DNA of 20,261 nt from Candidatus Komeilibacteria bacterium CG_4_10_14_0_2_um_filter_37_10 (GTDB lineage Bacteria > Patescibacteriota > Patescibacteriia > UBA1558), in contig PFPO01000049.1 of assembly GCA_002793075.1 (NCBI GenBank), positions 1 to 20,261 on the forward strand. The letters run 5' to 3'. The first letter of the stretch is position 1. Each line of letters opens with the position of its first letter. Below are positions 2,997 through 20,038 of the stretch, piece by piece. The notes beneath the pieces are model-generated. The model was not told the origin of the DNA and did not search any database. It was given only the letters and a program-made list of their open reading frames with translations. A program made the translations under genes and the position numbers.

Positions 2997-3605
2997 CTAC
3001 TTTTTTCGAAAAACTCTGCTGATATGCCAAGCAATACCAATAATAATCAAAACTATTATCCCGACGTTGAATTTATCCCACCAGGGCCCGAGTTGATTCC
3101 AATTATTTCCCAAAACCACTCCTAAAAAAACCAAAATATAGCACCAAATTAATGAGCCAATAAATCCAGAGATAGTAAACTTCCAAAAATGACCACGGGA
3201 AATACCCACAACAATAGATATATAAGTACGCACAACTGGTAACATCCGTGAGACAAAATAAATTGCATTACCGTGTTTTTCTAATAAATGATCTACCAAC
3301 TCAATATCACGATTAGATATTAATAGCCACTTACCATGCTTCATGAGAAATGGTCGACCTAATATATAGCCAAGATAATAAGAAATGATACCGCCAATAA
3401 CACAGCCAAAGGCACCAACTATCGCGGCTAGATGATAGTTCATTTGCCCGTGACTAGCTAAGAAACCAGCATAGGGCAATATTACTTCCGATGGAATGGG
3501 AATATTAGCGGACTCTAAAGTCATCAAAAACAACACGCCGAAATAATGCCAACTATTAATAATATCGGTAACAATGCTTGTAACAAAATGAATGATTTCC
3601 GTCAT
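2997..3605 (-). CDS. DedA/TVP38/SNARE-associated family membrane protein
   Basis: 202-aa polytopic membrane ORF with DedA signatures: ESANIPIPSEVILPYAGFL (E..P.P.E...G) and RMLPVVRTYISIVVG (R..P..R....G). Confidence 0.8.
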   Translation of the reverse strand: MTEIIHFVTSIVTDIINSWHYFGVLFLMTLESANIPIPSEVILPYAGFLASHGQMNYHLAAIVGAFGCVIGGIISYYLGYILGRPFLMKHGKWLLISNRDIELVDHLLEKHGNAIYFVSRMLPVVRTYISIVVGISRGHFWKFTISGFIGSLIWCYILVFLGVVLGNNWNQLGPWWDKFNVGIIVLIIIGIAWHISRVFRKK

Positions 3606-3716
3606 AACTACTTACTATTGTAATACATATTCCATATTTAATAAAACTCGCTCGTTTTATCAGCTCGTGCTACCCATGTTGTTTTCAACTGAAGATGGGT
3701 TTGCATAAGTTCACTT

Positions 3717-4815
3717 ACATATTGGAATCATTAAGAGATCCAAATGTATGCAAATAGGGATTAAGTATTATAATTGCTCTGGATTTGGTAGATTATATGA
3801 ATATGCTCATAAGCAAATTCATATGATTACTAAAGAAGCTAAACAACGACTTAAAATTATCCTTTTCTGGCAGAACTGTGGTCTTAGGGCAACTATATCT
3901 GCCTTTGGGGCCAAACAGTCCATTCTCTACAAATGGCGTAAAGTATATAGAGATTCTGGTTGTCAGTTAGCAAGCCTTAATCCTGGCAGTCAGGTCAGAA
4001 AAACAACCAACAAACGAGAAGTTAACCTAGATATTCTCGGCGAGATGAAACGATTAAGATTAGCAGTATGTCCTAATATGGGTAAGGCTAAGATCAAGAA
4101 GTTTCTCGACCCATTCTGTTGTTTAAATAACCTACCCATCTATTCAGAGTCCAAGATAGGTAGAATAATTAAGGAAAAGAAGATTTATCATCATCGACAG
4201 AGGGTCTATCATAATGGAACAATTAAAATCATTAAGAAACAAAAGAAACTAAGAAAACCAAAGGAATTAGTGGTTAATAGCCCAGGTGATTTAATAGAGA
4301 TAGATACTGTTGTTAGGTTTGTCTCTGGTCTAAAAAGATATATTATTACAGCAGTGGATACCTTTGGTCGCCCAGCCTTTGCCTATACTTACAATCGAGC
4401 AGGTGGTGCCAACGCTCGAGACTTCTTCAAAAAGCTAGAAGAAGTGATGCCCTTTAAGATTAAATCAGTGCAAACAGACAATGGTAGTGAGTTCCATCTT
4501 TATTTTAGAAAGTATTTGCAGGAACGAAATATTACTCATTACTATAACTATCCTGACCGATCATATCGTAACGGACACATAGAAAGGTTTAACCGAACAA
4601 TTCAAGAAGAGTTTGTTGATCAGAGTGAATTTCTACTGATCGACCTAAATGTATTTAACTCAAGATTAATAGACTATTTACTATGGTACAATACTAAAAG
4701 ACCACATTGGAGTCTTAATCTAGAATCACCTGTGGATTATTTAATTAAAAATAACTTTATTTCCAATATGTGCTGGACTAATACAGGTTTATCTTTTAAC
4801 TACCTTAAGATATAA
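3717..4815 (+). mobile_element. putative IS element (IS481-like, single DDE transposase ORF); ends uncertain
   Basis: It contains a single HTH + rve-integrase-core transposase ORF. An 11-bp inverted match, ACATATTGGAA at 3717-3727 and its reverse complement TTCCAATATGT at 4761-4771, is a candidate terminal inverted repeat. No clear target-site duplication was seen. Confidence 0.4.
3748..4815 (+). CDS. DDE transposase (rve / retroviral-integrase-core type, IS481-family-like); true start may be the internal Met at 3823
   Basis: 355-aa ORF. The N-terminal basic HTH-like region reads KQRLKIILFWQNCGLRATISAFGAKQSILYKWRKVY. The catalytic core carries D (IEIDTV), D (QTDNGSEF) and E (NGHIERFNRTIQEEF), the DD(35)E pattern with the conserved TDNGSEF and ERFNRT blocks. 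Confidence 0.8.
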   Translation: MQIGIKYYNCSGFGRLYEYAHKQIHMITKEAKQRLKIILFWQNCGLRATISAFGAKQSILYKWRKVYRDSGCQLASLNPGSQVRKTTNKREVNLDILGEMKRLRLAVCPNMGKAKIKKFLDPFCCLNNLPIYSESKIGRIIKEKKIYHHRQRVYHNGTIKIIKKQKKLRKPKELVVNSPGDLIEIDTVVRFVSGLKRYIITAVDTFGRPAFAYTYNRAGGANARDFFKKLEEVMPFKIKSVQTDNGSEFHLYFRKYLQERNITHYYNYPDRSYRNGHIERFNRTIQEEFVDQSEFLLIDLNVFNSRLIDYLLWYNTKRPHWSLNLESPVDYLIKNNFISNMCWTNTGLSFNYLKI

Positions 4816-4839
4816 TATAGTAGTTATTAATTATATCTC

Positions 4840-6035
4840 ATGAACAAAAAGAACCAATTAAAAAAAATAGTAATCTTTATTCTACTGTCTTGTGCACTTA
4901 AATTCTTTTTTACCGATCAAATCATCGAGCAAGAGTACAATTCTTTGGTCAAGCTCGGGGCCATCATTATAGTATTTGTTATTGGTATTGGTTTTGTCTT
5001 CCAAAATACCACACATATTATTGAAGAGACGACTGATGTCTTAAAAGACCGAACAAAGTTGGCTGGGGGCTTTCTCCAAGCCTTTGGCACTGCCTTTCCT
5101 GATATGGTACTGGGTATTGTCGCGGCTTTCCTAAGTTTACAGCTTCGTGATCATGATTATTTACGCGCCATTAACCTGGCTATTATCGCTGCCTCCACTA
5201 CTTTTGGCTCTAATATTTATAATATAATTCATGCCACTTGGTGTGTTTATCGTCAAAATGTTGCCGATAAAAAAATCAGATCATTGCTATGTTTCCCGGC
5301 TTGCCGTTTGGTGGCAATTTAACACCCGTCAAGAAACATTCTGTGAAACCAAGCCCCCGAGAACTTGGTCGGGCCATTGATATTTTGACGGTCCTTACTG
5401 TTCTGACAGCAGCTGTGGCCCTGAGCATGGTACTTTTTGGTAGTGTTAGTAATAGACCAGAGATGATCCAGGGCGACCTGTATCAATTGATTAGACCGAT
5501 TGGTATTATTCTCTTTATCTTATGTATCGCCATCCTCTATATTTATCGTCGCGGCGAAAAAGCCGAATCACCAGTAAAAGAAATAGCCGAAGAAGAAAGA
5601 TATTACGCCACCCGATCTAACTTTCGCATCTGGCTGGACCTGGGTTTGGCTGGTATAGCTATTCTCTTTACTGCTGAAAGTATGGTTACCTCAATGGAAG
5701 TATTTTCTGAAATTACTGGCCTTCCTTTTGTCTTAACTGGTATCGCCGCCGGTCTCATTGGCTGTTTTGGCGAAATGATGGTAGTGCACAATTTCACGGT
5801 TCATCCCAAGGGAAGAATTGGTGATGCTATCATGGGTGTGGCCATGGATAATATTGTCACCACGTTAGGCGCTGCTATCGTCGCTATTATGGGTGGTATA
5901 TTTTTGGGAGGTAACTCTTTAATTTTAATCTTTATTATTATTTTGGCAGCTAATACTATTTTGATTCAGCAAATATCTAAGTTCAAAAACAACTTACTAG
6001 CTACCAAGGTAGCTAGTAAAAAAATTGCTGCTTAG
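4840..6035 (+). pseudogene. CaCA-like (Na+/Ca2+ exchanger superfamily-like) polytopic membrane transporter split into two overlapping ORFs (4840-5322 frame 1; 5289-6035 frame 3) by a frameshift at an A7 homopolymer
   Basis: Both ORFs are highly hydrophobic and each carries one alpha-repeat-like motif (GTAFPDMVLGIVAAF; GLIGCFGEMMVV). Frame 3 opens exactly at the TAA embedded in the A7 run at 5269-5275, so a +1 A there would fuse both parts into one ~400-aa protein. This could be a real pseudogene, a phase-variable tract or a homopolymer sequencing error. Confidence 0.45.
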
Positions 6036-8241: not shown

Positions 8242-11200
8242 ATGGAAATGCCAAAAAATTATTCAGCTGGTGACTACGAACAATCGATCTATCAACAATG
8301 GGAAGAGTCCGGTTTTTTCAATCCCGATAATCTAACTTGGGCCAAGAAACCCTTCTCGATTGTCTTGCCGCCGCCAAATGCTACCGGCATACTACACCTG
8401 GGACACGCTTCGATGTTAGCCTACCAAGATGTACTAATTCGTTATCATCGCTTACTGGGCGAGAAAACATTGTGGCTACCAGGAACTGATCACGCCGCTA
8501 TTGCCACCCAAAATGTGGTAGAGAAAAAAATTGCTCAGGAAGAAAATCTAACCAAGGAACAGCTGAGACGTAACGCTTTCTTAGCACGAGTTCGTAACTA
8601 CGTAGCCAATTCGCAAAACACTATTCATAAACAGTTGCGAGCCATGGGATCTTCTTTAGATTGGAGTCGTGAACGCTATACGCTAGACGATGGTTTATCG
8701 CGGGTGGTAACTACTGCCTTTAAAAAAATGTACGACGATGGTTTAATCTGTCGTGGTTATCGTATTGTGAATTGGTGCCCGCGCTGCCAATCAACACTTG
8801 CTGACGATGAAGTGGAGTATAAGATACAAAAAACACACTTATATTACTTACAATACGGCCCGGTGGTAATAGCTACAACTCGTCCAGAAACCAAAATCGG
8901 TGATACGGGACTGGCGGTTAATCCGCACGATCAGCGGTACCAGCACCTAATCGGCCAAACATTAAAATTTTCTCTTGGTGATATAGAGCTATCAGTCAAA
9001 TGCTTTGCCGATGAATCGGTTGATCCGGAATTTGGTACCGGTGCTATAGGTGTCACGCCAGCACATAGTACTATTGACTATGACTGGGCTCAGAAATACG
9101 ATTTAGCGATTGTTAAAATTATTGACGAGCGCGGTAATATGACTAAAGAAGCTGGGGCGTATGCTGATCTATTAGTTACTGAGGCTCGCAAAAAATTCCT
9201 TCTAGCAATTGAACAAGCCGGACAGTTAATAAAAATTGAAAATTATGAAAATAATTTGTCTGTTTGTTATCGTTGTGGCACCGCGATTGAGCCACTGCCT
9301 TCCGAACAATGGTTTGTGGATGTCAATAAAAAAATACCAAAACTCAAAAAATCTTTAAAAGAACTATCGTTAGCAGTGGTGGAGAAAGGGTTGGCTGATG
9401 ACCCTAATAAAAAAATTGTGATTATACCGGAAAATTTTACCAAAGTTTATCTGCATTGGATGACAAACCTACACGACTGGTGTATTTCTCGTCAAATCTG
9501 GTGGGGTCACCGTATCCCCATTTGGTATTGTTTACAATGTGGCAAAATTTCTGCAGATAATGAGCCTCGGAGCAAGTGGTTTCTTGTTCGTCATGGCGAA
9601 ACCGATATGAACAAAGAGAATAGACTGTATTACCAAGATAACGATATTGATATGCCTTTAAATGAACAAGGAATAATGCAAGCGGAGGAATGTGCACAAG
9701 AACTAAAAAAACAAAAAATTGACCTTATTATTACCTCTCATTACTTACGCGCTCAACAAACAGCACAAGTTATTGCCCGGGTAACAGGAGCAAAAATTAT
9801 TCTTGAGGAAAACTTTCGTGAACGTAATACTGGCAATGCTCAGGGCATGACTTCTGCGGAAGTAAAAACAAAATTTCCCAACTTCTATGAATATGCTGAT
9901 AAATCAGCCAATCAGGAAAATTATCAAGAAATGGAAGAAAGAATGTGGGAATCTTTTTCTCAACATTATGCCCAACACAAAGATAAAAACGTGGTTATTG
10001 TCGGTCATGGCGGTGCCTTTCGTTCGCTGATACGAAAAATAAAAAACATTGACCCTGTAGATATCAGAACAAAAATTAACCTGCTATCCAATTCTCAACC
10101 TTTTCAGTTAGACATTCTTCAGCCGTGTTCTGGGTGTCATAGTCATTTTTTTGAACAAGATCCAGATACGCTAGATACTTGGTTTTCCTCAGCTCTTTGG
10201 AGTTTTTCTACTTTAATGAACGGTGAATATCATGGTAGTTGGCAAGAGTGGCTAAAAAATAGTCCTGATTTGCAAAAATATCATCCTCTTAATGTTATGG
10301 AAACAGGCTATGATATTTTATTCTTTTGGGTAGCCCGTATGATTCTGATGACTACTTATCTGATTAATGACATACCATTTCAAACAGTTTATTTACATGG
10401 ATTAATTCGCGACAAACAAGGTCGGAAGATGAGTAAGTCGTTGGGTAACGGCGTAGATCCTATTGTCATGATTGAAAAATATGGCGCTGACGCCTTACGT
10501 TTAGCTATATTAGTAGGCGCTACGCCAGGCAATGACACTAGGCTTTACGATGAAAAAATTGAAGGCTATCGTAATTTTATCAATAAGCTATGGAATATTT
10601 CCCGCTACATTTTTAACAATACAAAATCAATAAATATTATTAAGCAACAACCAAAACCAAAAACTGCGGCCGATCATTGGATTATTAATGAATTAAATTT
10701 GTTAATCACCGCAGTTAGCGACGATCTTAATAGTTATCGCTTTTCTTTAGCTATTGAAAAGCTCTACGAATTTACCTGGTCAAAATTTGCTGATTGGTAT
10801 TTAGAAATTAGTAAAATAGAAAAAAACAAAGAAGATATCTTGCTTTATATTTTACAAACTCTGCTAAAATTATGGCATCCATTCGCGCCTTTTGTTACTG
10901 AAGTATTGTGGCAAAAAATGAGTTCCGAATTAATTATGGTTGAAAAATGGCCAGTTGTTTCGGCACTAACAAAAATTGATCAGAGCTTTCAACAACTACA
11001 AGAAATAATCAATAAAATTCGATCAGCTAAAGCAGAAAATAAAATTGACCAAGTCAAAATTATTGACCTATACTTAGCAGAGCAATTAGACACTACTTCT
11101 TTGCAAATTATCAGCCAATTAGGCAGAGTTAATATTGTGCAACAGGCACTAGATAATTGGTTAACACTACCACTAAGTAATAATCTAATCAAAATTGCCA

Positions 11201-11382
11201 TTGATCGTGATGAGGCTGAACAAATCCACCGATCTAACATCAATCAACTACAAAACAACATTAGTTCGCAACGGGCAAAGCTAGCGAATGAACAATTTAT
11301 TAATAACGCACCATTGGAAATCATCGAGGAAGAAAGAAAAAAATTGACTGAAGCAGAAAAAAAACTAGCTCAGATTTCTTAA
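8242..11382 (+). CDS. valS: valyl-tRNA synthetase with an inserted histidine-phosphatase (PGAM-family) domain
   Basis: 1046-aa ORF with class-I HIGH (PPPNATGILHLGHA) and KMSKS (KMSKSLGN) motifs. It also carries the conserved WCISRQIWWGHRIP and DTLDTWFSS blocks and a C-terminal coiled-coil, all typical of ValRS. About 190 aa inserted between the zinc-knuckle Cys pairs (CLQCG ... CSGCH) carry the histidine-phosphatase motifs LVRHGETDMN, SHYLRAQQTA, ERNTGNAQG and VIVGHGGAFRSL. Confidence 0.95.
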   Translation: MEMPKNYSAGDYEQSIYQQWEESGFFNPDNLTWAKKPFSIVLPPPNATGILHLGHASMLAYQDVLIRYHRLLGEKTLWLPGTDHAAIATQNVVEKKIAQEENLTKEQLRRNAFLARVRNYVANSQNTIHKQLRAMGSSLDWSRERYTLDDGLSRVVTTAFKKMYDDGLICRGYRIVNWCPRCQSTLADDEVEYKIQKTHLYYLQYGPVVIATTRPETKIGDTGLAVNPHDQRYQHLIGQTLKFSLGDIELSVKCFADESVDPEFGTGAIGVTPAHSTIDYDWAQKYDLAIVKIIDERGNMTKEAGAYADLLVTEARKKFLLAIEQAGQLIKIENYENNLSVCYRCGTAIEPLPSEQWFVDVNKKIPKLKKSLKELSLAVVEKGLADDPNKKIVIIPENFTKVYLHWMTNLHDWCISRQIWWGHRIPIWYCLQCGKISADNEPRSKWFLVRHGETDMNKENRLYYQDNDIDMPLNEQGIMQAEECAQELKKQKIDLIITSHYLRAQQTAQVIARVTGAKIILEENFRERNTGNAQGMTSAEVKTKFPNFYEYADKSANQENYQEMEERMWESFSQHYAQHKDKNVVIVGHGGAFRSLIRKIKNIDPVDIRTKINLLSNSQPFQLDILQPCSGCHSHFFEQDPDTLDTWFSSALWSFSTLMNGEYHGSWQEWLKNSPDLQKYHPLNVMETGYDILFFWVARMILMTTYLINDIPFQTVYLHGLIRDKQGRKMSKSLGNGVDPIVMIEKYGADALRLAILVGATPGNDTRLYDEKIEGYRNFINKLWNISRYIFNNTKSINIIKQQPKPKTAADHWIINELNLLITAVSDDLNSYRFSLAIEKLYEFTWSKFADWYLEISKIEKNKEDILLYILQTLLKLWHPFAPFVTEVLWQKMSSELIMVEKWPVVSALTKIDQSFQQLQEIINKIRSAKAENKIDQVKIIDLYLAEQLDTTSLQIISQLGRVNIVQQALDNWLTLPLSNNLIKIAIDRDEAEQIHRSNINQLQNNISSQRAKLANEQFINNAPLEIIEEERKKLTEAEKKLAQIS

Positions 11383-13713: not shown

Positions 13714-13720
13714 CAAGACA

Positions 13721-13752
13721 AAACTGCCAGCAACGCGCTGACAGTTTTTTTT
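13721..13752. terminator. rho-independent terminator between convergent genes (hypothetical pair and copA)
   Basis: aaa ctgccagc aacgc gctgacag ttttttttt forms an imperfect 8-bp stem with one mismatch plus a T8 run on plus. A shorter A-run on the other side may serve copA. Confidence 0.55.
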
Positions 13753-13778: not shown

Positions 13779-16700
13779 TTATTTTAACGGTGTAAAAAAA
13801 CCTTGATCCACAAAATGAAATTGATCAAGTACCGTATTCGTCGCTGGTAGAATGCCAGCAATAATTACTCTCTGACCAAAAAAATTATCAATCGTATCGC
13901 CTGGCTTGCTAATTAATTTGGCATCAATCATCATCTGCGCTTCCAACGATCCGATATAAACAGGCCAATACGAATTACCACCCAACTGAACCTGACTAAA
14001 ACTGGCAATGGATGATTTTAATTGATCTGGTATATTAGTATTTGTTAATAAGTAAAAATTCTTAATAATTTCTTTTTCAGCAATTGATCTATTTAATGCC
14101 GTAGTGGTCAACTTGTTCCAGGTATTACTATTAACCAGATGATAATTATCAATAGCCGTGCCTGTTGTTTCCATAATACCAACTACTTTAACCCTGGCTA
14201 ATCCAAAAAAATTATCTAAAGAATCGCCAGCGCCTTGAATTAGTTTTTCTTTTTTCATCATCGCAGCTTCGCTAGCGCCAATGATCATTTCATCATCACC
14301 CAATGTCAGTGTACCTTCCGCTACTTTAAGCGAGTCAGGTAATTTCTCAACAGCCAGAAATAGCTTCGGATTGCCCTCGGCAAAGTTCATTTTTGCTTGT
14401 CCCTTAGCAATTAAATTATTCAACGACGATGCTGTTTCCCAAGAAACTGCGAGCGCCATACCTTTATTCTCCATGCCAGAACTAAACCGAGCAAATTCCA
14501 AGAATATACCCGTAAAAAGCAAAACCATAACCAATGGCGCGATCAGTGATACGTAGTTACGTTTACCCGGACGGAATAACTTCAACAACAGAGAATTAGA
14601 TACCACTGAGATAGATGATAGGGCCATGGTAAGTCCAGCAAGTTCTGGTTTGAGAATTAATCCAAAAGCTACAAACACTCGAGCTGCTACTGGTATGCCA
14701 ATAACATTATAAAACAAAGCAAAGAACATATTTTGTTTTATCTTGCTCATGGTTTCCCGAGACAACTCAAACGCCGTCACTACGTCATTAAGATCGTCTT
14801 TCATGATCACTACACCGCCAGTTTCCATCGCTACATCAGTACCAGATCCCATAGCAATACCCAAATCGGCTTGCGCTAAAGCCGGCGCATCATTAATGCC
14901 ATCGCCAACCATAGCAACTTTTTTACCAGTTGCTTGTATCTTCTTTACTTCCTTAGCCTTATCTTCTGGTAAAACCTCCGCCAAGACATTAGTAATACCC
15001 ACCTGAGTAGCAATCGCCTGCGCAGTTCTTTCGTTGTCGCCGGTGATCATATAAACTTCAATTCCTAATTTTTGTAACTTAGCCACAGCTTCCCGCGAGG
15101 TATTTTTAACTGTATCGGCAACAGCTACCGCACCAATAATACTTTCACGACTAGCGATAATCATTGCTGTTTTTCCTTGCTCTTCTAGTCTCTCTAATTT
15201 ACGATTGATTTTATCCAACGATAATCCCAAAACGCTAACCATCAAACGCCGATTACCAATATAGTATTTAACCCCCCTGATATCACCTTCTACGCCATGT
15301 CCGGGAATAGCTTTAAAATTTTCTACTTCCTCTAGATCAATATTTTCTTCCTTGGCATAAGCACAAATAGCCTCAGCTAATGGATGCTCGGATAATTTTT
15401 CTAAACTAGCAGCGACGCTGACAATTTCATCTTGATCTGATTGACCAAAATTAAGTACCTCGGTTACCTCTGGTTTGCCTTTGGTGAGCGTACCGGTTTT
15501 ATCAAAGACAACAGCCTTTATCTTACACGCTGCCTCTAGTGGCTCACCACCCTTAATCAAAATACCATATTCCGCTCCCTTGCCAGTGCCCACCATTAAG
15601 GATGTTGGCGTCGCCAAACCAAGAGCACAAGGACAAGCAATCACGATAACAGCCGTGAAGGCCATTAAGGCAAAAGCTAAACTAGCGCCAAGAAAAAAGT
15701 ACCAAACAATAAAAGTAACAATAGCAACTACGATAACGGTTGGTACAAACCAAGCTGAAATCTTATCAGCGAAGCCTTGAATTGGCGCTTTGGATCCCTG
15801 GGCCTCTTCAATTAGACGAATGATTTGTGCTAATGATGTCTCGCTACCTACACGCGTTGCTGTAAATTCAAAACTACCAACCTTATTAACGGTACCAGCA
15901 GCAACCATGTCACCAATATTTTTTTCTACTGGCAATGACTCACCAGTCAACATTGATTCGTCTACTGCTGATGAGCCCTTAACTATTTTACCATCCACTG
16001 GAATTTTTTCTCCTGGCCGAACAACTACAATATCACCATGAACAACCTCATCAATAAGGATATCTGAAACAATACCATTTCGTATCACGCGCGCGGTCTT
16101 TGCCTGTAAGCCCATTAATTTTTTTATGGCTTCAGAAGTTCTACCTTTAGTGCGAATCTCTAGCCACTTACCCAAAACAACGAAGGTGATCAAGAAAGCC
16201 GCCGTCTCAAAATAAAGTTCGGGAATTTTACCGCCCAATCCAATCAATGATCCGGTCTGCACAACATACAAAATATAATTAACGGTACTGTAAAAAAATG
16301 CCGTGGAAGTACCAATGGCAATCAAGGAATCCATATTAAACGTTCTCATCTTCAGTGCTGACCACAGACCGCGATAAAATCCAGCGCCAATAATAAACTG
16401 CACGGGAATAGTAAATAAGAAGGAAATAATGCCAAAATAAGGCGCCAATAATGTAGCGCCTGGTAACCACTGAAAGAAATCTAGCAACATAAAATAAAGC
16501 ATTGGTAAACTAAAAGCCAAACTCCACCAAAACTTCTTTTGATAACCACGTATTTCCGTTTCCCGTTTCCGACTATCATGCTCAGTATCTTTAACATCCA
16601 CTAATTCCGCGCTATAACCAGCTTTTTTGATGGTTTGCACCAAGTCACTGACCTTGGTAGTTGCTTCATTGAAAACTACCAATGCTTTTTCGGCAGCAAA

Positions 16701-17126
16701 ATTAACATTAGCTTGCTGGACGCTAGGCATTTTTTTTAAAGCTCGCTCTATTAATCCTGCGCAAGAGGAGCAATGCATACCAGAGATAGATAAATTAACC
16801 CGTCCATTAGCTTCAGTGGTCGTCTCTAATTTTATTTTCAACGGCTCGCTTGCAGCAGTTTCTTTAACTACTACATCCTCTGACGATGTTGACTGATCAA
16901 CACCAGTCGTTTCATTAATTACAGTGGCTTCATAACCAGCTTTTTTTATAGCTGCGATTACTTGACTATTATTAACTAAGGATTCGTCAATACCTAGACT
17001 ACCACTACCTTCTTGGAAGTTAATTTTAATATTACCTATGCTGGGCAATTCTAAAAGTTCAGCCGTAATGATCTGCTCGCAGGACGAGCAGTGCATGCCA
17101 CCAATTTTTAACTGTAACGTCTTCAT
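13779..17126 (-). CDS. copA: copper-translocating P1B-type ATPase (CopA-like) with two N-terminal HMA domains and an unusual ~270-aa C-terminal extension after an extra TM helix
   Basis: 1115-aa ORF with two MxCxxC HMA domains (GMHCSSCEQ; GMHCSSCAG). The TM helix carries CPC ([12 protein letters not shown]), and the phosphorylation motif DKTGTLT, the hinge GDGINDAP and the TGES-type actuator (LTGESLP) are present. After the normal final helix ([18 protein letters not shown]) comes an extra hydrophobic helix ([24 protein letters not shown]). A soluble C-terminal region then carries two copies of a GD(S/T)(L/I)DNFFG...(Y/F)H(L/F)V(N/D) repeat. Confidence 0.9.
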
Positions 17127-17353: not shown

Positions 17354-19177
17354 TTATTCAACGTTGATTACACCTCGGGGAACGCCCATGGCACAAGTTA
17401 TGGAATATTGACCTTTCTTGGTGGGCGTAAAATCAAGTTCCAAGATGTTACCACTCTGTAAATACTCGGGATTATTATATAAGCCCGGTATCATAATCGT
17501 GCTCATACACCCCTGACCGTCATCCTTAACGTCAATCAAGAATTTAACTGGCATACCAGCTGTGACAGAAAAATTGTTTGGCTGGATATCCTTATTTAAA
17601 GTATAAACGGCTTTGATGATCTGTGCTGGTGTATTAGCTACTGCGTTATTATTCACACTGCCATAATCCGGCTTGGTACTATTGGCGTTAATCGGTGGGC
17701 GAGCTCCACCGCCGCAACCACCACAACCGCCACCACCAAGACCGCAGGACGATCCTTTGGTGGCTGCTTTATTATTGGTAGATGAATTGCTCGCTCCAGA
17801 AATAGGGCCGTCTGTACTTACTACATTAAATGCCCCCCGATACATACCCATACTACAAGAGAAAGGAATTTTACCTTCTTCTTGAGGAGTAAATTCAAAA
17901 ATATTTTCACCGGCAACTAAATTTTCTCTAATACCCAACTTCGGCGCGCTGATACTAGCAGCACAGGAATATGGTTCCGTAACATTAATGATCCACTTAA
18001 CTGGCATATCTTTTCTGATAGTAAAATTGTTTGGTGAATAGCCTGTGTAGCTCTCAGTCATTTTGACTATCTGTACACCATCTTGGATTATCACATTGGG
18101 ATCTTGTGAATTTGTTACTGCGGAATTTTTGTCACCCCCCCAACTAATGCCGACTAAAGCCAGGCCATTAGATATATTGAATAGCGCAAACAAAATTACT
18201 ACTACACCAGCCACCTTAAAAAATTTCCGCGCCGCAGATCCTTTCACTGCCGAAGTTATACCACCGATAGAAAGAAGTCCTGGTGCGGTACCTATGGCAA
18301 ATAATCCCATAATCATCGCCCCCTGGACAAAACTACCGGTGGAGATGGCATATATTTGCATCGCTTGAGTAAATCCACAAGGCAAGAAAAAAGTGAGCGC
18401 GCCAACCATCAGGGAATTCCGATGATTGTATTCGGCGTGATGCCGATCAGTACCAAATAATTTAGCGATACCCTTGGGTAACGTCAATTTCCAAGAATTA
18501 AATTTCGGAAAAATTTCTATCAGTTGCAGACCGACAAATAACATTAAGGCACTGACAATAAAAGTTAAAAAACTTGTTATCGTTGTCGAGAGCTGAAAAA
18601 TTGATCCCAGGGCTCCCAGTAAACCACCGAGAATAACATAACCGCTAATGCGGCCTAAATTAAAAAATAAATGCGGCCTAAATTTTTGACTAGTTGTAGC
18701 TTCGGGATGCTTTTCCACGTGCTTAGCGGAAAGACCAAGTACTAAACCGCCAATCAAAGCCATACAGGAAGAGAAACCAGCTACCAATCCAATCAGCACT
18801 ACCGTACCAAGACTTGAAGGACTACCGCTGGTAGCAAAACCAATGTTAGTTAAGCCAAATAATTTTAAAAAACCATAAGTAATAATAACAATTACTACTG
18901 CGGTAAATAATTCTTTATAATCCTTGGGGTTACGACTAAAAAAACGTGGTTTTTCAGCAACGCCAACTTGATAGCCAGCCGCAACTACTGCTTGTTCTAA
19001 ATCCTGTGCTGCTGGCTTTTGCTGGGTGTAGTATATTTCTGCCACGCCTTTATGATGCGTTACCTCGCTTTTAGTAACGTGTTTGATATGCGAAAATTGT
19101 TCCTCCAACAAAAGTTCACAGGAACGACAATGCATGCCCTTAATTGGTAAGATTATTTTTTGTAATTTATGAGTCAT
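17354..19177 (-). CDS. multidomain membrane protein: N-terminal HMA + DsbD/CcdA-like (DsbD_2-type) 7-TM domain + cupredoxin-like domain + Gly/Cys-rich linker + second cupredoxin-like domain
   Basis: 607-aa ORF with an N-terminal HMA (GMHCRSCE). About 7 predicted TM helices carry conserved Cys in GFSSCMALIGG and FFLPCGFTQ, resembling the two-Cys CcdA/DsbD_2 transmembrane family. Two ~95-aa beta-rich modules with shared motifs (PNNF(T/S)(I/V)..(D/G)MPVK(W/F)(I/L)I(N/D)V ... F(E/D)FTP...G..(P/S)(F/I)(S/T)C(S/A)MG..RG..NV) look cupredoxin-like. Between them lies SSCGLGGGGCGGCGGGARPP. Confidence 0.8.
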   Translation of the reverse strand: MTHKLQKIILPIKGMHCRSCELLLEEQFSHIKHVTKSEVTHHKGVAEIYYTQQKPAAQDLEQAVVAAGYQVGVAEKPRFFSRNPKDYKELFTAVVIVIITYGFLKLFGLTNIGFATSGSPSSLGTVVLIGLVAGFSSCMALIGGLVLGLSAKHVEKHPEATTSQKFRPHLFFNLGRISGYVILGGLLGALGSIFQLSTTITSFLTFIVSALMLFVGLQLIEIFPKFNSWKLTLPKGIAKLFGTDRHHAEYNHRNSLMVGALTFFLPCGFTQAMQIYAISTGSFVQGAMIMGLFAIGTAPGLLSIGGITSAVKGSAARKFFKVAGVVVILFALFNISNGLALVGISWGGDKNSAVTNSQDPNVIIQDGVQIVKMTESYTGYSPNNFTIRKDMPVKWIINVTEPYSCAASISAPKLGIRENLVAGENIFEFTPQEEGKIPFSCSMGMYRGAFNVVSTDGPISGASNSSTNNKAATKGSSCGLGGGGCGGCGGGARPPINANSTKPDYGSVNNNAVANTPAQIIKAVYTLNKDIQPNNFSVTAGMPVKFLIDVKDDGQGCMSTIMIPGLYNNPEYLQSGNILELDFTPTKKGQYSITCAMGVPRGVINVE

Positions 19178-19265: not shown

Positions 19266-19718
19266 TCATTCGCGTTTCGCGATCGTCTCTAAATGGTCAA
19301 TAATTAATAACGGTGGATCATTAATTGATAACAACGAAATTGGTTTAAAAAATTGATCTTTCTCGGTAACTGTCGATAAAAACATAACAACTACTCTTTC
19401 GCCAACTCTTAATTCTTGGGGATTGGTTTGACTTGGTTCATTTTTTTGATAACAACACGGTAATAGATTGTTATTATTTTGCTGCTGCCGAGTAACCGGT
19501 ACTGGCGCTGGAATACTATCGTGTGTCTGATTTGATTCTTGGCAATTATCCATACTGTTATTTGTCGTAACTACATCGTTGGCGGGTTCAGGTAGCGCTT
19601 GGGCTGCTAAAGCAATGCCGGGCAAGACAGCTAGGTGACAAAAAAATATACTCCCACTAAACAAGACTAACAAAGTCGCTAGGGCAATTATTCTTTTGTT
19701 GTTGTATTTCCGGTACAT
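19266..19718 (-). CDS. hypothetical membrane-anchored protein (signal-anchor/TM, Q/N-rich, CC motif) inside the copper operon
   Basis: 150-aa ORF with an N-terminal hydrophobic segment (IIALATLLVLFSGSIFFCHLAVLPGIALAA), then a polar region with QQQNNNNLLPCCYQKNEPSQ. It lies between csoR and the fusion gene on the same strand. Confidence 0.5.
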   Translation of the reverse strand: MYRKYNNKRIIALATLLVLFSGSIFFCHLAVLPGIALAAQALPEPANDVVTTNNSMDNCQESNQTHDSIPAPVPVTRQQQNNNNLLPCCYQKNEPSQTNPQELRVGERVVVMFLSTVTEKDQFFKPISLLSINDPPLLIIDHLETIAKRE

Positions 19719-19765: not shown

Positions 19766-20038
19766 TTATTTACTGGCTAAAGAGGTAACTTTAAGAATTT
19801 CTTCCGTCATTTTATTTTTTATCTTACTGTCTTTGGTGGCTATAGCATTGGCAAAGCAACCATGTAAATGATCTTCCATTAACATAGAATGCGCAGACCT
19901 TAACAAACCAATTACCGCCAAATTCTGCTGCATAATATCAATGCAATACTTGCCATCCTCTTTCATAGAAATAATTTTACTCAACAAAGAGTTGGCTTTT
20001 TTAAAATTAATAAGGATCTTTTCACTATTGTTAGCCAT
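19766..20038 (-). CDS. csoR: CsoR-family copper-sensing transcriptional repressor (CsoR/RcnR, DUF156)
   Basis: 90-aa ORF with the CsoR Cu(I) ligand signature: Cys in YCIDIMQQ, then H-x3-C in EDHLHGCF (the C-H-C pattern of the CsoR W-X-Y-Z fingerprint). It is the first gene of the minus-strand copper cluster. Confidence 0.8.
   Translation of the reverse strand: MANNSEKILINFKKANSLLSKIISMKEDGKYCIDIMQQNLAVIGLLRSAHSMLMEDHLHGCFANAIATKDSKIKNKMTEEILKVTSLASK

Follow-up and report, generated by a model that had tools for sequence, protein, structure and literature searches.

A copper-exporting P1B-type ATPase of Patescibacteria with a ninth transmembrane helix and a predicted extracytoplasmic tandem domain of Sabre-like fold

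The stretch of DNA analyzed here (the window) comprises positions 1 to 20,261 of contig PFPO01000049.1, from the assembly GCA_002793075.1 of Candidatus Komeilibacteria bacterium CG_4_10_14_0_2_um_filter_37_10, a member of the Patescibacteriota. Its minus strand carries a copA gene whose open reading frame (ORF), at 13779..17126, encodes a product of 1115 amino acids; coordinates below are window positions on the minus strand unless stated otherwise. From its N terminus, this CopA consists of two HMA domains, a P1B-1 ATPase core, a ninth transmembrane (TM) helix, hereafter TM9, and a predicted twin Sabre-like ectodomain. Both HMA domains, recognized by Pfam and by their GMHCSSC motif with its CxxC, lie at residues 4 to 68 (16923..17117) and 112 to 171 (16614..16793). 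The canonical eight-TM ATPase core follows at residues 195 to 851 (14574..16544), as defined by Pfam, NCBIfam, and motifs. Pfam reported the two HMA domains, E1-E2_ATPase, and Hydrolase (HAD), with no match past residue ~775. The transmembrane Cu(I) site of P1B-1 ATPases has the signature CPC in M4, YN(x4)P in M5, and MxxSS in M6, and the protein carries TGE394, CPC498, DKTGT542, GDGIND741, YNVIGIP806, and MALSS834. It scored 627.8 bits against the NCBIfam model TIGR01511 (cut-off 397) and 665 bits against TIGR01525 (cut-off 346), and these CopA/P1B models stop at residues 848 to 853 of the window protein. Up to residue ~851, the gene is a canonical P1B-1 Cu(I)-exporting ATPase.

A CopA is expected to have eight TM helices and a short cytoplasmic C terminus, whereas the window protein continues through TM9 and 234 further residues. 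After M6 comes a short cytoplasmic loop, RPGKRN (residues 852 to 857, 14556..14573), assigned by its positive-inside bias, and then TM9 itself (residues 858 to 881, 14484..14555), assigned by hydrophobicity and by AlphaFold2. The segment 858 to 881 is strongly hydrophobic (Kyte-Doolittle 2.37), 4 Lys/Arg (K/R) residues lie in the 21 residues before it, AlphaFold2 renders the region as a 29-residue helix, and all of the fused homologues described below have kept it. An earlier reading of this DNA, made from the sequence only (the sequence-only reading), had claimed an extra TM helix followed by a C-terminal domain of ~270 amino acids. The helix is borne out by these data and so is the extension, although its size has to be corrected to 264 amino acids past the canonical end, of which the 234 after TM9 (residues 882 to 1115) form the added domain.

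This domain contains no Cys and only two His. It begins with a flexible linker and one helix (residues 882 to 910, 14397..14483; AlphaFold2, predicted local distance difference test [pLDDT] score of ~57 around residues 886 to 895), followed by repeat 1 (residues 911 to 1012, 14091..14396) and repeat 2 (residues 1019 to 1115, 13782..14072). The two units, each of ~85 to 100 amino acids, are 38% identical (BLASTP E = 5e-17), and alignments of the two halves matched each other with an hhalign probability of 99.65%. The tail domain is therefore a true tandem duplication, far beyond chance. The two peptide repeats quoted by the sequence-only reading are both present in the translation, but the duplication is longer and its motif wider, the full form per repeat being IG-x-x-E-A-x-M-M ... 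G-D ... F-F-G ... G-I-L-x-x-T-x-T-x-x-D-x-x-H. The duplication is also visible in the DNA encoding the GD(S/T)xDNFFG part, as had been claimed: the copy at 14203..14228 is 85% identical to a second copy at 13876..13901, the latter lying one base from the position first given.

An AlphaFold2 model of residues 850 to 1115, built from a 33-sequence alignment, reached a pLDDT of 92.1 and a predicted template modeling (pTM) score of 0.80. In it, the 29-residue helix of TM9 leads through a linker of low confidence (block pLDDT 57) to a single helix, which is followed by two beta-rich units that resemble each other. A fold search with the modeled tail returned, among the matches listed, exclusively MacB-type mechanotransmission transporters, a relationship that the sequence-only reading, which had recommended such a model and search, had not recognized. 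The predicted structure has the Sabre-type fold of MacB_PCD (PF12704), and the alignments extended over 136 to 161 residues of full-length MacB-type targets versus 97 to 122 residues of isolated domains. The periplasmic domain of MacB consists of a contiguous Sabre subdomain of ~110 residues inserted in a split Porter subdomain (PMC5985334). Since the Sabre of that domain is a contiguous unit of this size inside a split Porter, we conclude from the model that the tail comprises two Sabre-like units in tandem, one per repeat; the extent and contiguity of the match suggest that the part matched is indeed the Sabre. In sequence, MacB_PCD was the commonest weak Pfam match of the family (13/70 members, best E-value 7e-6), and two members align to it with the GD motif at an identical model position. 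The one member with a printed bit score, P0033, reached 24.1 bits, under the cut-off of 27, and the window sequence gave no Pfam match to MacB_PCD. No Porter was evident: the two repeats fill the whole domain, and DSSP shows no beta-alpha-beta units outside them. The window protein contains neither an FtsX domain nor an ABC (ATP-binding cassette) ATPase, and scanning 15 further ORFs of the window revealed none either. Where MacB_PCD lies between TM1 and TM2 of a four-TM FtsX-type permease, itself the partner of an ABC ATPase, the window protein ends after repeat 2. The tail is structurally related to MacB_PCD without belonging to that family.

Because the structural relatives among the matches listed are all mechanotransmission transporters, the movements of the pump helices between E1 and E2 could be passed through TM9 to an ectodomain that performs mechanical work beyond the membrane, for instance by driving Cu out of an extracytoplasmic pocket or by acting on the envelope; the longer alignments to full-length targets might then mean that TM9 superposes on their stalk helix. 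We consider this very improbable, since no Porter, which is regarded as the intrinsic mechanotransmission element (PMC5985334), is evident and since only one helix connects pump and domain, through a floppy linker of low confidence (pLDDT ~57). In archaea, moreover, the module exists as a protein of its own, as described below.

The survey of related genomes bears on whether such a fusion is real. A word-indexed protein search with the tail gave ~33 relatives covering the new domain, and HMMER, run exhaustively with a profile of 14 sequences, gave 195 cluster representatives (50% identity) at E ≤ 1e-3, of which 104 reached E ≤ 1e-30. Among the GTDB species, each represented in the scan by one genome, 133 loci were found, and the locus counts given from here on cover the best 80 of these 133. 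In 80/80 of them, the CopA core, TM9, and the domain are contiguous in one frame; 70 are complete ORFs with DKTGT and CPC, and 10 are cut by contig ends. Early candidate phyla radiation (CPR) assemblies do sometimes split this gene, an example being P0008, a 229-amino-acid "free-standing" CPR homologue that we rejected as a frameshifted copA in an early assembly. Nevertheless, because all 80 independent metagenome-assembled genome (MAG) loci share the same in-frame fusion, misassembly of the window is excluded, contrary to the reading in which the extension is an artefact. A terminator-like hairpin (13720..13748; stem of 13 bp), located 30 nt beyond the stop codon of copA, likewise speaks against a fusion error.

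Most record titles of the fused loci are of Patescibacteria, namely, Falkowbacteria, Parcubacteria, Peregrinibacteria, Gracilibacteria, Saccharibacteria, Moranbacteria, Magasanikbacteria, Woesebacteria, Shapirobacteria, Collierbacteria, Doudnabacteria, and Berkelbacteria. Among the Saccharibacteria, a group with cultivable members, the fusion is found, for instance, in L076, a complete genome. More than one-third carry other labels, mostly Gammaproteobacteria or Pseudomonadales. Thus, L002, L003, L004, L008, L013, and other TPA_asm loci are titled "uncultured Gammaproteobacteria," "Pseudomonadales," or "Bdellovibrionales," while their closest relatives are labeled Patescibacteria. As their CopA cores are 70 to 80% identical to that of the window and the operon order is identical, we suspect that the labels rather than the biology are at fault.

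Besides the fused genes, many family members are proteins of 250 to 280 amino acids in which the domain starts at about residue 40 to 60. An N-terminal hydrophobic anchor was found in 54 of 61 of these free-standing homologues, with more K/R before the anchor than after it in 50 of the 54, a bias on the N-terminal side that indicates an N-in/C-out orientation. Where their context was readable, the free-standing genes adjoin copA on the same strand in 7/7 cases. The gene orders are domain, copZ-like HMA, copA (P0033 and P0092); domain, copA (P0067 and P0078); HMA, HMA-DsbD_2, FtrD-like, HTH_5, domain, copA (P0072); HMA, HMA-DsbD_2, copA, domain (P0075); and cupredoxin, HTH_5, HMA, copA, small ORF, domain (P0085, annotated as Candidatus Woesearchaeota). 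The archaeal-type CopA next to P0075 (L085, 5804-7978) has 724 amino acids and ends directly after M6 (...MALSSVSVVTNSLTLRWVKLK*), so that it is a canonical eight-TM pump. An obligatory genetic linkage of the module with copA is thus shown in bacteria and in at least one archaeal-labeled genome. The relationship is of the Rosetta-stone type: a separate partner in some genomes, the module has been joined to the pump in CPR bacteria, with its anchor helix forming the junction. Since other lineages, a Woesearchaeota MAG among them, encode it as a gene of its own beside an ordinary eight-TM copA, it would be a dedicated partner of the pump.

These homologues also help to place the tail relative to the membrane. 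The positive-inside loop before TM9, the N-in/C-out orientation of the free-standing forms, a fold otherwise found only in extracytoplasmic domains, and the absence of Cys from 68/70 ectodomains together argue strongly that the tail domain lies outside the cell membrane, as the sequence-only reading had proposed. The opposite view, in which TM9 does not span the membrane and the tail is a cytoplasmic regulator, runs against the RPGKRN loop, the free-standing anchors, and the Cys-free ectodomains alike; taken together with assembly or fusion error, it has in our judgment almost no chance of being right. We hold with high confidence to the architecture and topology of a nine-TM CopA with an external tail.

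Residue conservation was counted in an alignment of 70 fused and free-standing sequences, in which each repeat proved to hold the same set of near-invariant polar or soft-ligand positions. In repeat 1 these are E953-A-A-M956-M957 (14256..14270) and D993-N-Y-H996 (14139..14150), conserved at E953 in 64/70, M956 in 53/69, M957 in 65/69, D993 in 69/70, and H996 in 61/70 sequences. In repeat 2 they are E1062-A-Q-M1065-M1066 (13929..13943) and D1101-Q-F-H1104 (13815..13826), with E1062 in 67/70, M1065 in 45/70, M1066 in 65/70, D1101 in 70/70, and H1104 in 60/70. H996 and H1104 are the only His residues of the 234-amino-acid domain of the window, and repeat 2 of many free-standing forms reads D-M-M-H. 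A second near-invariant group comprises structural Gly and Thr residues and the GD...FFG...G-I-L motif, which MacB-type domains also have; the set of Met-Met, His, Glu, and Asp is specific to the family. Loss of the His accompanies loss of the first Met, both in repeat 1 (52/9 versus 1/8) and in repeat 2 (45/15 versus 0/10), with Fisher p values of 2e-5 and 8e-6, respectively, that ignore phylogeny. Met and His without Cys are the ligand chemistry of extracytoplasmic Cu(I) sites, and the conserved Met-Met/His (plus Asp/Glu) of each repeat are likely candidate Cu(I) ligands.

Not all relatives of the window CopA have the ectodomain. Several CPR genomes encode CopA variants that have TM9 and stop 3 to 6 residues later (...FARFSSxMxx*), with an unrelated gene downstream (loci L092, 5001-5771, and L093, 22-1224; proteins P0034, P0038, P0048, P0051, P0055, and P0058). 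The ectodomain can have been lost or never gained in these variants, with TM9 kept. At the other extreme, P0203 (L098, 6001-10134), a high-GC relative of 1377 amino acids in the same operon, has a further extension of ~260 amino acids after the twin-Sabre domain, and the Met/His motifs in its Sabre repeats are degenerate. This extension and its counterpart in P0180 (residues ~380 to 638) contain H-x-H-P-like motifs, and a family search with them gave only a nonsignificant CopC match (E = 0.022).

Upstream of copA, the operon contains a gene (17354..19177) for a protein with an HMA domain, one TM helix, a six-TM DsbD_2 domain, and two cupredoxin-like (Cupredoxin_1) domains. The two cupredoxin domains occupy residues ~350 to 607; one of them has a CupA-like C-x-M-x-M motif (CSMGM at 441), and a Gly/Cys-rich linker (SSCGLGGGGCGGCGGG) connects the two. 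The protein has seven TM helices, six counted by script and the seventh by eye, and its cupredoxins would therefore sit outside the cell; its C terminus is probably exported. A homologue of this HMA-DsbD_2-cupredoxin gene is present in 61/80 fused loci, and 15 of the 19 without it have little or no sequence upstream of copA. The other four have more than 5 kb of upstream sequence and no such gene, and the TM9-only locus L092 still carries both csoR and the DsbD_2-cupredoxin gene. We thus reject a strict co-variation of the ectodomain with the cupredoxin protein, a point that had been raised for survey.

Farther upstream, a gene for a CsoR-type copper-sensing repressor (Pfam Trns_repr_metal) lies at 19766..20038 and has homologues in 24/80 related loci. 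Between it and the DsbD_2 gene lies an ORF of 150 amino acids (19266..19718) that has a hydrophobic anchor at its N terminus, a stretch rich in Q/N, and a pair of Cys (CC), and for which neither Pfam nor NCBIfam gave a match; in related operons, an FtrD-like (PF10080) gene takes a similar place.

The first of the functional alternatives concerns this neighborhood. The twin Sabre-like domain could bind no metal and act as a docking platform that recruits an extracytoplasmic partner to the pump, such as the exported cupredoxin domains of the neighboring DsbD_2 protein or another Cu acceptor. Docking is the usual role of Sabre subdomains, those of LolC, MacB, and YbbP recruiting LolA, MacA, and TesA, respectively, and the DsbD_2-cupredoxin gene, present in most fused loci and also in free-standing operons, would provide a candidate. 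That gene, however, persists beside the TM9-only CopA of L092 and is missing from four well-covered fused loci, and docking leaves the conservation of the Met-Met and His positions unexplained. We regard this explanation as unlikely, though by no means negligible.

We give a similarly low standing to an accessory in the manner of a beta subunit, a single-pass partner that would stabilize, insert, or gate CopA and carry no Cu. Such accessories of P-type ATPases include the Na,K-ATPase beta subunit, KdpC, and CDC50, and the module is likewise a type II single-pass protein encoded beside an ATPase or fused to it. The retention of TM9 alone in some CopAs suggests, moreover, that the helix itself matters, and PacL provides a case of P1B-ATPases relying on accessory proteins with a single TM helix (PMC13460109). 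Nevertheless, PacL is unrelated and works at the cytoplasmic face of the membrane, canonical CopAs do without a subunit of this kind, and the conserved and co-lost Met/His would again be left without a role.

The reading that we favor, to which we give about an even chance of being correct, is that of a membrane-tethered extracytoplasmic partner of CopA that may accept or hand on Cu(I) at the exit of the pump. A role of the tail in Cu hand-off or reception, as the sequence-only reading had suggested, is plausible because of the conservation of the operon and of the Met-Met/His in each repeat, and we infer that the tail physically contacts CopA. In the proposed mechanism, a single-pass membrane protein would have been fused to the C terminus of CopA, TM9 being its N-in/C-out anchor. 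The ectodomain would hang on its flexible linker of ~10 residues above the exit and would capture Cu(I) when the pump, in its E2P state, lets it go. In each repeat, the conserved Met-Met/His, together with Asp/Glu, would likely provide one Met2His-type site analogous to that of CusF. From there, Cu(I) might go into bulk solvent or onto the CupA-like cupredoxin domains of the neighboring protein, which are probably exported. In this way, Cu(I) would be kept from appearing free at the membrane surface and from entering the cell again. CusF provides a precedent: this beta-barrel, whose Met2His Cu(I) site is exposed, docks where the ion leaves Escherichia coli CopA and receives it directly (PMC9470648).

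Several observations weigh against the favored reading. Known Sabre subdomains are protein-docking surfaces and not metal sites (PMC5985334). The sequence evidence for homology with MacB_PCD stays below the Pfam threshold, and profile searches of PDB sequences with the 14- and 70-sequence alignments gave only spurious matches (E > 0.5). One of the two Met may simply be the hydrophobic residue that is buried in the A-x-x-L helix characteristic of MacB_PCD sequences, the co-loss of Met and His was assessed without regard to phylogeny, and the divergent high-GC member P0180 has degenerate motifs. Finally, CopA variants with TM9 and without the ectodomain occur in related genomes, and the ectodomain is therefore dispensable for some pumps. 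More tentative, and in our estimate rather less likely than the favored reading, is the fuller proposal that the module is a dedicated extracytoplasmic subunit of the P1B pumps of CPR bacteria and some DPANN archaea, a twin Sabre recruited from a MacB-type ABC permease and serving as an exit chaperone with one Met2His site per repeat.

Among known systems, the likeness to the periplasmic core domain of MacB-type (type VII) ABC transporters (MacB, LolC/E, YknZ, YbbP, and HrtB) lies in the Sabre subdomain. The window tail differs in its two Sabre-like units in tandem, without an evident Porter and below the Pfam threshold, and in its family-specific Met-Met and His. It also lacks the second TM helix of the permease, the FtsX domain, and the ABC ATPase, and the module is instead attached to, or encoded beside, a P-type ATPase. 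CusF is a small beta-rich extracytoplasmic protein that works at the CopA exit with a Met2His ligand set (PMC9470648); the module, likewise beta rich and predicted to be extracytoplasmic, is tied to CopA genetically and conserves two Met and one His in each repeat. The Cu(I) site of CusF-like chaperones is Met2His with an added aromatic residue. CusF, however, is soluble, whereas the module is duplicated and membrane tethered or fused, and its Cu binding is putative. No Pfam, NCBIfam, or PDB-sequence match related the tail to CusF, and no CusF-type structure was among the top 50 to 60 fold matches listed.

The Na,K-ATPase beta subunit and KdpC are type II membrane proteins with an outward domain that associate with their pump; the module is not homologous to them and is also found covalently fused. 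To our knowledge, no single-pass ectodomain subunit has been described for P1B pumps. PacL (DUF1490), the single-TM accessory encoded next to the P1B-ATPases CtpC/G/V of Mycobacterium tuberculosis, is needed for pump stability and sometimes binds metal (PMC13460109). Its soluble part is cytoplasmic, disordered, and rich in EA repeats and binds the N-terminal metal-binding domain (MBD), in contrast to a module that is predicted to be folded and extracytoplasmic and is unrelated in sequence; no Pfam match to DUF1490 was found in the family members, and the topology is opposite to that of PacL.

With the canonical CopAs of E. coli, Legionella pneumophila, and Archaeoglobus fulgidus, the window protein shares all motifs for catalysis and transport, the HMA domains at its N terminus, and an operon context of the csoR/copZ type, but it has nine TM helices instead of eight and a predicted extracytoplasmic C terminus with a 234-amino-acid domain. 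According to a 2026 review, all P1B-ATPases have 6 to 8 TM helices and soluble cytosolic N- or C-terminal MBDs. No Pfam or NCBIfam model covers the tail domain, and we found no literature description of a nine-TM P1B-ATPase, of one with an extracytoplasmic domain, or of CopA in Patescibacteria. The family of the tail domain thus appears undescribed, in line with the novelty first claimed for the extension. The pump is of a known kind; what is new is the nine-TM architecture with its extracytoplasmic twin-Sabre partner.

Elsewhere in the window, the plus strand encodes at 8242-11382 a class I aminoacyl-tRNA synthetase of 1046 amino acids (tRNA-synt_1, Anticodon_1, and a Val_tRNA-synt_C arm). 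A complete His_Phos_1 domain (E = 1.6e-41) is inserted at its residues 447 to 609, inside the catalytic/editing region; a histidine-phosphatase insertion is unusual for an enzyme of the valyl-tRNA synthetase type. An ORF of 355 amino acids with integrase-core domains (rve, rve_3, and DDE) at 3748-4815 of the plus strand, apparently an insertion sequence element or transposase, lies in a region of lower GC (0.33 to 0.36 at 3001-5000).

An unsettled question of copper homeostasis concerns the exit of Cu(I) from a P1B-ATPase and whether the ion ever becomes free, and the only characterized acceptor at the pump exit that we know of is the soluble CusF of E. coli. A covalently attached and strongly conserved ectodomain would give a natural 1:1 complex of pump and acceptor for structural and transfer studies, and the split archaeal version offers a two-protein form of the same system. 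Our study also defines a protein family not covered by any Pfam or NCBIfam model, adds to the Sabre fold a use outside ABC transporters, and reveals a nine-TM P1B-ATPase architecture that is common in the CPR. Moreover, it points to gene sharing between CPR bacteria and an archaeon labeled Woesearchaeota (DPANN). If the fuller proposal of a dedicated subunit is true, the fused or tethered exit chaperone would be CusF-like in function and, in topology, similar to a beta subunit of P-type ATPases, and the delivery of metal by P1B-ATPases to an acceptor protein would be an old and general feature of their design rather than a peculiarity of the Gram-negative periplasm.

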